In this document: one piece after another, positions 5,389 through 58,141 of the stretch
Layout: every line of letters begins with the position of its first letter
Position numbering within the stretch: position 1 is the stretch's first letter
Assembly: GCA_964016885.1 (NCBI GenBank)
Contig: OZ024756.1
Span: 42,408,001-42,472,000, forward strand
Reading direction: 5' to 3'
Origin: Eledone cirrhosa
Lineage: Eukaryota
DNA: 64,000 nt
The notes under the pieces: model-generated
Seen by the model: the letters and a program-made list of their open reading frames with translations, nothing else
What the model was told of the DNA's origin: nothing
The model's database searches: none
Made by a program: the position numbers and the translations under genes

Positions 5389-5834
5389 TTGTTATACTTG
5401 GGGAGGGTCATATTCTTGTACTAATATTGCCAGAAATAACAACAGAACACACTCACTGTTTGGTTGGTTTTCGCTTCTGTATCTTTTATATCTCCATAGT
5501 TAATTTATTTGGCAATCAATGTTTATCATTGATTGACCAGTGGTTAAAAATACAGATATAAATATATACCTATAGTCTATCAAAGTTCTTTCATTGCACA
5601 TCTGCAACATCATCAGTGGTACTATTCCCTCCTATTGTATTGTTCCCTCCTGTTGCAGATGTGCAATGAAAGAACTTTGATAGACTATATGTATATATTT
5701 ATTTTGATTGCAAAATAAATTAACTATGGAGATATAGAAGATACAGAAGCGAAAACCAACCAAACAGTGAGTGTGTTCTGTTGTTATTTCTGGCAATATT
5801 ATTACAACAATATGACCCTCCCCAAGTATAACAA
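5389..5834. repeat. Long fold-back inverted repeat; single-arm relative at about 52460-52715
   Basis: Arms ttgttatacttggggagggtcatatt...gcacatctgcaaca / tgttgcagatgtgc...ccccaagtataacaa, with a loop of about 40 nt. Confidence 0.9.
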
Positions 5835-6005
5835 ATATGTATATATATAAGGAATTTAGATTGATACTATGTTAAATGCATAGAAACCTTTGCAATTATT
5901 TTATTTGGATATCATATATATTTTTGTTGTTGTTTTGGATAATAATTTATTATAAATAGGAAATAGGTACAAGAAGGTATCTTTCTATTGGTATCTTGTA
6001 TTATT

Positions 6006-6242
6006 TTAACCCTATAGTTACCAACTCAGGCCAAACCAGCTCTGGTTCTATGAAATAAAACACCCATTTTAAAGGTTTCCGATTTAAATTAAAATCTTCC
6101 AACATAATTTTATATAAGAACCTTACATTAAGTTAATTATCTTACTAATGAAATAATTAATAATTTTAGAAAATCCCTCAAAATCCTTAATTAATTAATT
6201 AAAATAGAATGTATTTCATTAGATGTGGTCATGAAAGGTTAA
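6006..6242 (+). mobile_element. TTAA-flanked piggyBac-type MITE, family B (second copy inverted at 49799-50045; fragments near 13930, 15754, 16720)
   Basis: TTAACCCT...AAGGTTAA ends and a shared interior (ctggttctatgaaa...aaaatcttccaacataattttatataagaaccttacatta). Confidence 0.7.
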
Positions 6243-7179
6243 ATAAGAAATAGCTACAAGAAAGGAAAGATTTATTGGTATTTTCTATAAATCAGTACAA
6301 GAAAAGAGGGTTTATTGGTTTCTTGTATTACTATAATAAACACTAAAAAATAAATTTATGAGGAAGTTAAAAGTTTCATCGAATTTTTTTACTAAACATT
6401 TTGACTAAAAATTCGATGAAGCTTCTAAATTTCAAATTCTACTCAGTTTTTTTTACTGAAAAATTTGTCATTATCAATATCCAATAACGGAATATTGAAA
6501 TCAATCATGATCTATAAGTTTATCCAGTCATATATTTGTATGTGTTATATATATATGTGTGTATATATATATGATATTAAGAATTCAAACTTCCTACTAA
6601 GACTATATTTTAGAAAAAAACTTATATAAACAGATTTTTAATTTAGATAACTATTTTTGTATACATCAATGATTAATATTTTTGACTTGTTCCATATATG
6701 CGCACACACATGTATATATACATGCATACGCACATATCTCTCTATATATACATATACATATATATATATATATATATTTGTGTATGTATGTATACATATA
6801 GATATATATCCATTTGTAAAATACTTGTAATGACCATGTGGTTGTACAGAGGTTACACAAGAAAACAAATAAAAGTGAGACACAGGTAGAGAGAGAGATT
6901 GGGGGGGGGGGGTAAGGCTGATAGAGTGAGAAAGAAAGGGAGAGATAGAGTATGAAAACAGCTGAAGATATTTAAGACTTTTGACTAGCTATATTTTCTT
7001 TATATATATATTGTGTGTGTGTATGTATATATGTATCTATATGTATGTATGCATGTATATATATTTATATACATGTATGTATATAAAGCAAGATGAAGAA
7101 AAATTCAGATTATATAATATATATATATATATATATATACTAGTACAACTTACATGGCACCAATCAATCATGTCAGAAT

Positions 7180-7229
7180 TTAGTTATCTTTGGAATATAG
7201 GATGTTATCTTTCAACAATTTTTGTTTCT
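7180..7229 (-). CDS. KIAA0513: KIAA0513-like protein, last coding exon
   Basis: (E)KQKLLKDNILYSKDN*; acceptor ttgtttttcag, phase 1 matches the previous exon, TAA at 7180-7182. Confidence 0.85.
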
Positions 7230-7724
7230 CTGAAAAACAAAAGAAAAAACAAACATTAAGAATAAAAATGTAGAAAATTTGGAATTCAGGAAAATAGCTG
7301 TGAATATATATTTAGAAAATTGGGTAAAATACCCCTATCAACAGAAAATATGGTCAGCAGTGGCTACAGAGAATCAAACTCTGTGTTCTGTATTCTCTCA
7401 AATTCCAGCTGTGTTCTGTACCATTGAGCTAAACGACCCCTGATGACAGTTATTGTCTTAAATAATCGTTTCTACATTTGGTGCGAAGCCAGTTATTTGA
7501 AGGGTAGGGGAAAAGTTGATTAAATCGACCCCAGTGCATCACTGGTACTTTATTTTGTCAACCATGTAAAGATGAAAGGCAAAGCTAACCTCGACAGGAT
7601 TTGAACTCAGAACGTAAAGAACCAAAATAAAATATTGCAATGACATTTTATTTGATGCTCTGCCAACTCACACCTACCTTCTTTTATCTCAAAATTAATT
7701 AAAGAGGAATTAATTAACTCTTAC

Positions 7725-7819
7725 CTCCGCCCAGATTAGCAATTGTGGATTGTTTACGCAGGAATTCCAGACATAAATCCCGGCTTAATCCAAACGACTT
7801 CATGTTACATGTAAATGTT
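7725..7819 (-). CDS. KIAA0513: KIAA0513-like protein, 95-bp exon
   Basis: TFTCNMKSFGLSRDLCLEFLRKQSTIANLGG (cf. TFTHNMLAFGL...FLKKQAVIGNL). Acceptor tattgcag, donor GTAAGA. Confidence 0.92.
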
Positions 7820-8119
7820 CTGCAATAGAAATATAAAACATATCAACATATTATACCTGGACTAGTGTTCCAAACATTTAGATGCTTTATTTCAAGCATT
7901 AAACTAATATATTTCTTTAATGTAGTGTCTGTCCTGGATGTGACAGGGTTTGCGAGGACTGCAAAACTCAAGCTATGCCAAGCACGTTCAACGATGTTGG
8001 AAAGATTGGGTTCAAGGTTCTAGACCAAGACCACATTCATCCCTTAACAACCCACACTGGGTCAGCATGGTATGGTATGGCATACTCGCTCACCATGTTA
8101 CACACAACTCAAACATTGT

Positions 8120-55480: not shown

Positions 55481-55795
55481 AAGAATAAGGAGCAGGTATT
55501 GCAATAGCCTGGGATTCAAGGGCCCTCAACTCTTCAACAGGCTGCCGAGGCATCTGAGAGACTTGCATGACGTGGAGGTGGATGTCTTTAAGAAACATCT
55601 CGACACCTTGTTATCCAGGATCCCAGATGAGCCCACAGCAAGACACGAGGGAAACCTAAGGGCAGCAGCAACAAACTCCCTCCTACACCAGTGGCCAACC
55701 TATACAGGCTGGAGATAAAATGTGTAGCAACAAGGGCGGTGCCCCAGCATGGCCTCAGCCGGATAGCTGAAACAGGTAAAAGAGTAAAAGAGATA
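55481..55795 (+). mobile_element. CR1-like LINE 3' end inserted in (AT)n
   Basis: [47 protein letters not shown]...AATNSLLHQ, then tail ggcggtgccccagcatggcctcagcc (same tail at about 23049). Confidence 0.8.
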
Positions 55796-56037
55796 TAAAA
55801 ATATATATATATATATATATATATATAAAAAGATATATATATATATATATATATATAAAAAGATATATATATATATATATATATATATATATATATATAT
55901 ATATATATATATATATATATATATATATATATATATATATATATATATATATATATATATAAAAAGATAATATATATATATATATATATATATATATAAA
56001 AGATATATATATATATATATATATATAAAACCATATT

Positions 56038-56103
56038 TATTTCATTATATATATTTCGGGGATATCATATTAACAATATGCTATGCCTTCATCAGACAAA
56101 ATA
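56038..56103 (-). ncRNA. Mirror copy of the 56.2-kb hammerhead motif
   Basis: Exact reverse complement within the perfect 114-bp inverted repeat 56024-56137/56163-56276. Confidence 0.7.
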
Positions 56104-56196
56104 CAATATAAACAGTTTTATAGATAAATAGATTCGACATACAGTTATAACACCGACTTCATTCGAATCTATTTATCTATAAAACTGTTTATATTG

Positions 56197-56262
56197 TATT
56201 TTGTCTGATGAAGGCATAGCATATTGTTAATATGATATCCCCGAAATATATATAATGAAATA
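56197..56262 (+). ncRNA. Minimal type-I hammerhead ribozyme motif
   Basis: TATTTTGT-CTGATGA(56205-11)-A GGCATAGCATATT gtt AATATGATATCCC C-GAAA(56243-46)-TATATATA-ATGAAATA. Stem I of 8 bp (2 GU), palindromic stem III, AUA cleavage triplet. Confidence 0.72.
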
Positions 56263-56687
56263 AATATGGTTTTATAAATATAGTTTTCCATTTATTTAAT
56301 ATTGTAAATATACTCCAAATATTTGTCGAGTGCTTTTATATCAGTTATAAATATTTACTAGTTGTAACCCAACAATTTTAAATATAACTTTCCATATATA
56401 TATATATATATAAATATAAAAATATATATATATATATATATATATATATATATATAAATATAAAAATATATATATATATAAATATATAAAAATATATATA
56501 TATATATATATAAAAATATATATATATATATATATAAAAATATATATATATATATATAAAAATATATATATATATATATATATAAAAATATATATATATA
56601 TTTATATATATATATATATATATATAAAAATATATATATATATAAATATAAAAATATATATATATATATAAATATAAAAATATATAT

Positions 56688-57305
56688 ATCATCATCATCA
56701 TCATCATCATCAGGTTTAGCGTCCGTGTTCCACACTTGCATGGGTTTGGACGGGGGTTTTCCCACTTGAGGCAAGAATGGTTGTCTTGCTCGCATAGGAC
56801 TGTCTGGCGGGTTTTCTACAGTTGGATGCCCTTCCTAACACCAACCACATTTACAGTGTGGGGCTGGGAGGTTTTTACCGTGTTGCCTACACGGCCACAT
56901 TTACAGCGTGGACTGTGTGTTTTTTTTGTCGTGACACCTACACGATCTCATTTGTTTCGGCCTGGATGTTGTGGGACCAACATAACTTTACATGAAAGGG
57001 GCGGTGTGGATGGGGTGGAGGTGGTGGGACGGGGGGGTGTTTTGATAGAGATGCTACTGACTGTAGTAGGTTTTTACTTTGTATTTAGGTAAGGCGGGTC
57101 TTCTCTATTACTGAGTACCGCCAAAGGTCTCGGTCCAGTGACATTGTCTTGGAGAGGTGTAAGCGTGTGAGGTCGGAATTTATCAGCTCGTCCCATGTTT
57201 TTCTGGGTCTGCCTACTCCGTGGCTACCGTCTATCTTTATTGCCCTGCACTTTGTTATACAGCTGTCGTCTTTCATGCGCATCACGTGACCGTACCAACG
57301 TAGCA
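56688..57305 (-). mobile_element. RTE-clade LINE 3' end with (GAT)n tail, inserted in (AT)n
   Basis: LRWYGHVMRMKDDSCITKCRAIKIDGSHGVGRPRKTWDELINSDL...DRDLWR, followed by 3' UTR and gatgatgat. Confidence 0.88.
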
Positions 57306-58141
57306 TATATATATATATATATAAAAATATATATATATATAAAAATATATATATATATATATAAAAATATATATATATATATATAAATATAAAAATATAT
57401 ATATAAATATAAAAATATATATATATATATAAAAATATATATATATATATATATATAAATATAAAAATATATATATATAAAAATATATATATTAGAAAGT
57501 GAGGTTTTTTTTACAAAATGAAAAATAACCGAGGTATCCTACACGAGTGAAAGTATAAAGAAAAAAAGATGAAATCGAAAATGCAACTGGAGTCTTATTT
57601 TTTTAAAAATATATATATTTATTTGGTTCCTTTACCGGTTTCGCAGTTCTTCTGCTTTTCAAAAGTAGAGTTGAGATGGAGGGTCTGTGGTTTTTCTCAC
57701 ATCTGGTTGGTCTCTGAATGTTACTTGTTTTATATGGAAAAAGTGGTTCGAAATGCCAGGTTTTTCGAGAAGTAATTTGATTGGTTGGTCAATAATTATA
57801 ATAAATTTCGCGCCAGTTCGCGTTACAATAGTTCTTCAAATAAGAGGGATTGGTTGGTCAATAATTATAATAAATTTCGCGCCAGTTCGCGTTACAATAG
57901 TTCTTCAAATAAGAGGGGGGGGGGGGGGGGGTGTCACAGGTTGTTTTTTCATATATGAGTGTTTGAATTTCTTTTTACTTGAAAAAAGGGGCTCACGAAG
58001 GCTTTTTTAAAAATATATATATATATTTGTTTATAAATATATATATATATATATATTTTTATATATATATATAAAAAATATATATATATATATATATATA
58101 CGATATTAAACAAATGGAAACTATATTTATAAAACCATATT

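Follow-up and report, generated by a model that had tools for sequence, protein, structure and literature searches.

We analysed a 64,000-nt stretch of contig OZ024756.1 (assembly GCA_964016885.1, positions 42,408,001 to 42,472,000; hereafter the window), AT-rich animal DNA with large TA arrays, for fold-back hairpins that carry hammerhead ribozyme cores. A sequence-only reading had proposed that most long hairpins in the window hide a decayed hammerhead. In the unmasked window this does not hold, since TA arrays account for all 25 of the longest inverted repeats. Once 16,440 nt of simple repeat, with a large share of self-complementary TA, had been masked, self-BLAST returned 30 rows at 18 loci; the hairpins of the sequence-only reading are thus real, and the letters it quoted are all present where it placed them. 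Thirteen of the loci were tested for hammerheads. Loci 3818, 7049 and 62129 (tiny palindromes or 22-nt arms) were dropped beforehand, as were the pairs 23163-24223 and 48585-49729, whose copies lie 700-1145 nt apart. Seven of the 13 hairpins score for a hammerhead read outward at shuffle p<0.05 (7/18 if the five dropped loci are taken as negatives), including all of the top six loci by self-BLAST score (114-729 bits), and for the masked window the proposal largely stands.

The seven core-bearing hairpins sum to 2,200 nt, or 3.4% of the window. Together with seven unpaired solo copies they form 14 loci in about nine families, in which every copy is 100-400 nt long and without an open reading frame (ORF). 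We consider it very probable that the hairpins are dead remnants of the pseudo-long terminal repeats (pLTRs) of about nine families of Penelope-like elements (PLEs), arranged as head-to-head inverted copies with a type I minimal hammerhead. This class of element is already known, and the loci described here are additional members of it. The suggestion that several distinct pLTR families of different ages share the window is borne out by unrelated pLTR-like families, arm identities of 0.82-1.00 (a divergence of 0-18%) and a common outward type I layout.

Family 7 is a fold-back at 59543-60017 with identical arms (208/208), intact cores at 59743 (minus) and 59791 (plus), a 115-nt stem II domain and a partial third core copy at 59753; its stem II domain (59798-59912) is predicted to form a single long AU-rich rod of -40.5 kcal/mol. 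The family 6 fold-back (56018-56282), which lies within TA arrays, has arms that are 99% alike and intact cores at 56095 (minus) and 56205 (plus), and a solo relative occupies 58113-58235 on the minus strand (intact core 58199). The family 1 fold-back (5341-5840, minus) has arms at 5382-5609 and 5651-5840 that are 96% alike, with an intact core at 5616 on the minus strand; its plus copy begins at stem II, about 40 extra nucleotides stand on the left side only, and TA runs follow both ends. Its solo relative at 52453-52701 (minus) has an intact core at 52671 and a G-C closing pair in stem II. Family 5 (43865-44066, minus), which the sequence-only reading did not cite, holds a U3-A8 core at 43998 in its spacer, with stem I paired at 7 of 8 positions and a loop-less stem III. 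More decayed fold-backs represent family 2 (22235-22382, plus; arms 82% alike, core at 22309), family 3 (31741-32049, plus; arms 31750-31855 and 31911-32018), which is very abundant, and family 4 (32761-33191, plus; arms 84% alike, cores at 33009 plus and 32905 minus). Families 3 and 4 have minus-strand solo relatives at 54035-54195 and, more distantly, at 24605-24780. Family 8 consists of solos at 50805-50952 (plus; intact boxes at 50817, a 3-bp stem I and AATAAA) and 15157-15312 (plus; decayed core 15173), and family 9 of one solo at 57625-57670 (minus), for which no relative was found in the window.

Hammerheads were scored with our own log-odds type I descriptor, written because Rfam gave no hammerhead among the matches listed, even at intact sites, in three versions. 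Version 1 found eight sites of at least 18 bits in the whole window against 0.23 expected from 333 dinucleotide shuffles; one of the eight, 63157, sits in an exon of an ABC-transporter gene and is probably a chance match. Version 2 added the U3-A8 core, following a published survey (PMC4209133), and placed 6/13 hairpins at shuffle p<0.05. Version 3 also permitted a long stem II and an absent stem I, and scored arms singly so that arm pairing cannot help. Read outward, it gave p<0.05 for hairpins 5389, 22235, 31753, 32761, 43865, 56030 and 59543. In the inward control only 21604 was an independent case (p=0.046), as the inward match of 43865 hits the spacer motif already counted outward. The nominal binomial probability is 1e-6 for 7/13, and 0.001 for the 4/10 that stay below p<0.05 when the three intact hairpins are excluded; both values err on the optimistic side, since tuning of the scorer followed inspection of the sites. 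Cores in hairpins 4411, 6364, 13381, 21604, 30462 and 47616 were discarded (outward p 0.07-0.61). Hairpin 47616 shows a half motif, GAAAC..GTC, with the 5' core missing, as does its relative at 27450. The old, coreless 271-nt hairpin at 21604-21874, which has a partial relative at 7272-7365, could be a miniature inverted-repeat transposable element (MITE) or a pair of pLTRs truncated on the downstream side of the ribozyme.

The core boxes CUGANGA (or UUGANAA), GAAA and NUH were found in type I order. Core mismatches are absent at 5616, 52671, 43998, 50817, 57662, 56095, 56205, 58199, 59743 and 59791, and one to three core defects occur at 22309, 33009, 24772, 15173, 31859 and 54183. Stem I pairs at 7-8 of 8 positions at 33009, 43998, 56205, 58199 and 59791 and weakly, over 3 bp, at 50817 and 57662. 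Helices I and II are paired, and the short helix III is self-complementary, being palindromic in 6/9 families. The further statement that AATAAA often follows the cores applies to part of the set: it occurs within 30 nt of the cleavage site in 4/9 families, against a background of 4.3%. A MAFFT alignment failed to bring the GAAA box or stem I into register across sites. All seven core-bearing hairpins read outward, each with a type I minimal hammerhead predicted from its letters.

The individual cores singled out earlier hold up to differing degrees, and several had been misread. At 22309 (plus), TTGATGA is followed after 17 nt by GAAAC, with one core mismatch and stem I paired at 6/8 positions; the mirror arm retains the C15.2-G16.2 pair, a GTA triplet and a proper helix III. 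With shuffle p values of 0.032 (version 2) and 0.026 (version 3) and no relative found in the window, support for this core is modest. The core at 33009 (plus), cited for its retained stem I, has a flawless 5' core and 8/8 pairing in that stem, and both arms of the fold-back share three 3'-core defects, at G12, 16.2 and U16.1 (p=0.037 in version 2, 0.046 in version 3). It is supported by the minus-strand solo 24772, which aligns with it in register over 184 nt (E 1.4e-5; score 75, against a maximum of 50 in 300 shuffles). This solo carries both boxes intact, with GAAAC in register, a stem II likewise of 17 nt, a different yet pairing stem I and a G at the cleavage position; the 32905 arm aligns with it at the distal end only (score 58). 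Read depth over the 33009 core, about 11-30 against 4, is near single copy and uninformative for a consensus. The solo remnant at 50817 (plus) is likewise upheld by its perfect core boxes and by a window relative at 15173 (plus) over about 165 nt. The minus-strand solo at 57630-57666 fits the published U3-A8 core variant exactly: its core at 57662 scores 23.4 bits with the variant allowed and has no mismatch, a 4-bp stem II and a palindromic stem III. The cores at 43998 and 57662 (both minus) are two unrelated hammerheads with this covariant core, which has been reported from Schistosoma in the parts of PMC4209133 that were covered. Two of the earlier cores fell. The weak candidate at 5399 (plus) scores 3.2 bits, no better than shuffles, and sits in antisense orientation at the element's distal end; the hairpin's true core, at 5616 (minus), had gone unnoticed and has the intact minus-strand relative 52671. 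The other, at 31861 on the minus strand, belongs to family 3.

For family 3, read contigs from four sequencing runs, two of them from one sample, were compared with 31600-33250 at 80% likeness. Summed contig depth is about 1e5, against about 4 in the single-copy flank. In the reads the element extends from 31741, with TA runs beyond 31740, to about 32049, where it ends naturally some 30 nt beyond the mirror point, on the right side only. Contigs of the left arm stop at about 31855 and the plus copy runs from 31863; the CTGAAAA proposed at 31861 (minus) therefore likely joins three plus-copy letters to the fold-back junction. The hairpin scores p=0.13 in version 2 and p=0.020 in version 3, but the minus parse lacks stem I and was rejected. 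It is the plus strand that carries the element's hammerhead: there a 9-bp closing stem II surrounds about 79 nt and is followed by GAAA at 31945 and a palindromic stem III. Its relative at 54183 (minus) has a decayed 5' core, an 81-nt stem II domain, GAAACAATTGTC, a GTC triplet and stem I. Position 31862 is A in about 98% of the read depth, which restores A6 if the core is 31859-31865; the second mismatch of that core does not appear among the read differences listed. The 5' core has either decayed at 31859-31865 or been removed by the junction, and both registers fit. The expectation that family relatives restore the cores was thus confirmed where it could be tested, for 33009 through 24772 and for the 31753 hairpin through 54183 and the read contigs. 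Each opposite-strand joint listed for these reads rests on one contig per run, and metagenome pattern scans for the family gave no match. Abundant repeats at 32070-32197 and 31656-31740 abut the element, and the former ends in TA runs in many copies.

Several structural features connect these loci with PLEs. The 5' ends meet at the centre in every fold-back, and in 7/7 of them no more than 3-67 nt separate the start of the core-bearing copy from the core downstream, a clustering that is most simply read as a pLTR boundary. Relatives exist in the window for five of the nine families; they keep the helix lengths and restore broken positions, with differing stem sequences. A candidate one-sided tail is seen at 32019-32049 (about 30 nt, from read ends) and at 5341-5381 (about 40 nt, from the assembled letters); longer one-sided extensions occur at 56283 and beyond and below 59543, and the tail is not resolvable in three old hairpins. 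TA runs flank four of the seven hairpins (5389, 31753, 56030 and 59543) and many family 3 copies, a test that is weakened by how common TA runs are in the window.

The covered parts of the literature describe close counterparts. The metazoan PLE hammerheads of Cervera and De la Pena (2014, PMC4209133) share the type I layout, the short palindromic or loop-less helix III, an extra nucleotide after A9 (here in several cases) and the U3-A8 variant. They too comprise many heterogeneous families per genome, mostly solo with some opposite-strand pairs 100-700 bp apart, and are described as weakly active as dimers. Unlike them, our set includes two families whose stem II domain is very long (about 80 and 115 nt), and no parent ORF was found; no cephalopod is named in the parts of that survey that were covered. 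Endonuclease-bearing PLEs such as Penelope/Poseidon and Neptune (Craig et al. 2021, PMC8557442; Arkhipova et al. 2013, PMC3846280) resemble our loci, in the sections covered, in their inverted truncated copy joined 5', head-to-head, the one-sided tail of 30-40 bp (to which the extensions at 32019-32049 and 5341-5381 may correspond), microsatellite targets, solo pLTRs and a junction palindrome (here 59743/59753). PMC8557442 describes an inverted 5'-truncated copy beside the pLTR, and PMC3846280 head-to-head pLTRs of about 200 bp whose junction palindromes were read as self-priming. Unlike those elements, our loci consist of the two ends alone, and with no reverse transcriptase or GIY-YIG found the clade is not assignable.

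We propose that a PLE reverse transcriptase copies uncleaved element RNA, a template suggested by the copies themselves, because they run through the cleavage site; the covered part of PMC11167929 reports uncleaved RNA as the main template in vitro. The enzyme would stop near the pLTR boundary and then self-prime or switch template, which would add an inverted copy, its 5' end joined to that of the first. Such pairs would then decay neutrally, leaving cores from intact to broken. If a pair were transcribed, its arms would be expected to base-pair, and a ribozyme present in both arms would likely be trapped as an inactive duplex. The idea that the ribozyme itself seeds the hairpin found no backing: nothing here shows it, and the literature attributes the inversion to PLE self-priming. 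A single snap-back rule at a fixed ribozyme helix was also rejected, as it fits 43865 only and junctions differ among the seven hairpins.

Several results weigh against this interpretation. None of 203 distinct ORFs scanned, a set that takes in about half of the plus-strand candidates, matched Pfam models of reverse transcriptase or GIY-YIG, and therefore none of the families can be linked to an autonomous PLE; the lack of such matches is expected for truncated ends. Six of the 13 tested hairpins have no core, and the scorer was revised twice once sites had been seen. Rfam gave no hammerhead among 150 of 169 matches listed for the window, nor among the matches listed for the intact core pair at 55990-56340; its scans returned only miRNA-type hairpin matches, below the gathering score. 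The version 1 scores of 22309 (13.0 bits), 33009 (12.3) and 31861 (9.1) lie singly within the window-wide null. Such weak single-site scores, together with the Rfam result, the noise at 5399, the probably wrong parse at 31861 and the one inward control at p=0.046, would suit a reading in which the decayed cores arose by chance in AT-rich palindromes of MITE-like or cruciform origin, with ribozyme elements confined to the three intact fold-backs. We regard this as most improbable: four of ten hairpins remain significant without the intact three, and the independent solos 24772 and 54183 supply the missing core letters in register. Nor is the palindromic unit itself the amplified family, as in a MITE or fold-back transposon, given the unpaired solos in families 1, 3, 4 and 6; an unpaired solo of family 3 is unexpected for a MITE. 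The short, ORF-less copies, the 5' starts clustered within 67 nt of the core and the great abundance of family 3 might instead reflect non-autonomous retrozyme-like units, that is, self-cleaving, circularising hammerhead RNAs reinserted in trans by a PLE enzyme, so that the short form is itself mobile. Animal retrozymes are reported as pLTR-derived in the covered part of a recent preprint (bioRxiv 10.64898/2026.07.22.740005), and these non-LTR retrozymes are also short, non-coding, PLE-related and of hammerhead type I. The same source defines them by head-to-tail tandem units, each with a hammerhead, and none of our 14 loci lies in such an array; ours are inverted pairs and solos. The sole direct duplication is the 38-nt partial copy at 59753, and no copy starts at the cleavage site, which makes a retrozyme origin unlikely.

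A further explanation is that the fold-backs are kept as double-stranded RNA (dsRNA) substrates, for ADAR hyper-editing or as sources of small RNAs, and supply a major share of the genome's dsRNA. Each hairpin is predicted to form a long duplex on either strand (minimum free energy -67 to -335 kcal/mol; perfect stacks of 13-207 bp). The covered part of PMC5625713 reports exceptional hyper-editing and dsRNA potential in octopus, with Penelope the most edited LINE-class repeat in lizard, and a section heading of PMC9989829 names young repeats as the main editing targets. PMC5625713 also describes, in the part covered, an ADAR target in Xenopus tropicalis, a palindromic Harbinger repeat that is similarly self-folding, about 200 bp long and a partner-free source of dsRNA. 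For that repeat, a DNA transposon, the consensus is palindromic and editing has been measured, whereas here each insertion builds its own fold-back and editing is hypothetical. Retention for dsRNA nevertheless appears very unlikely to us. The arms diverge freely (in three hairpins they are 82-86% alike), the 2,200 nt in seven hairpins compare with 16,440 nt of masked simple repeat, and no hairpin could be placed inside a transcribed gene: no exon was found across 13-62 kb to link the SBF2-domain exons (7.7-13.1 kb) with the ABC-transporter exons (62.3-63.8 kb). Counts of A>G and T>C in the family 3 reads stem from paralogous DNA copies and are uninformative on editing, and a search of public sequencing runs listed no RNA run among its matches.

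Minus-strand exons at 12938-13105, 8478-8558 and 7717-7935 belong to a gene, which we take to be KIAA0513-like, whose product has an SBF2 domain at the C terminus (Pfam E 4.9e-7) and relatives 400-860 aa long; no exons upstream of these three were found. A weak tblastn match to the same family lies on the opposite strand at 44898-44981 (plus; best E 5.8e-4, 27 proteins). At 62284-63847 (minus), three exons encode the NBD1 region of an ABCC/MRP-type transporter; no later exons were found left of 62284, where an N gap spans about 61.2-61.4 kb. A 274-codon open frame at 51283-52107 (minus) has no Pfam match and shows short repeated Thr/Ser motifs and a coiled-coil-like end. Tandem repeats include 24 copies of a 72-bp unit at 10953-12683 (97% alike), with kin dispersed near 8121-8338, 15847-16036 and 62147-62373; an array of a 52-bp unit at 4407-4802, one unit inverted at its left end; and an 8.8-kb TA-type microsatellite array at 34580-43352, which may be assembly-inflated.

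Our literature search, which covered few subscription journals, returned no paper linking hammerheads to octopus or cephalopods, or octopus editing to Penelope, and the main text of a 2026 Octopus vulgaris repeat annotation (PMC13282606) does not mention hammerheads, ribozymes or editing. At about one per 7 kb of non-microsatellite DNA, hammerhead-bearing pLTR fold-backs might be conjectured to form one of the main classes of short-loop dsRNA that lack annotation in a genome that edits heavily and is likely coleoid, with some families (e.g. the very abundant long-loop family at 31741-32049) spreading as short non-autonomous units in which the ribozyme itself fixes the 5' boundary; we judge this combined scenario distinctly unlikely. 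In practice the gain is for annotation: Rfam misses these ribozymes, hairpins of this kind are open to mislabelling as MITEs or miRNA precursors, and outward reading with a hammerhead descriptor places them among Penelope-like elements. If the host is an octopus and the duplexes prove to be edited, these remnants would help to explain its high dsRNA load, which we offer as a testable lead rather than a result.

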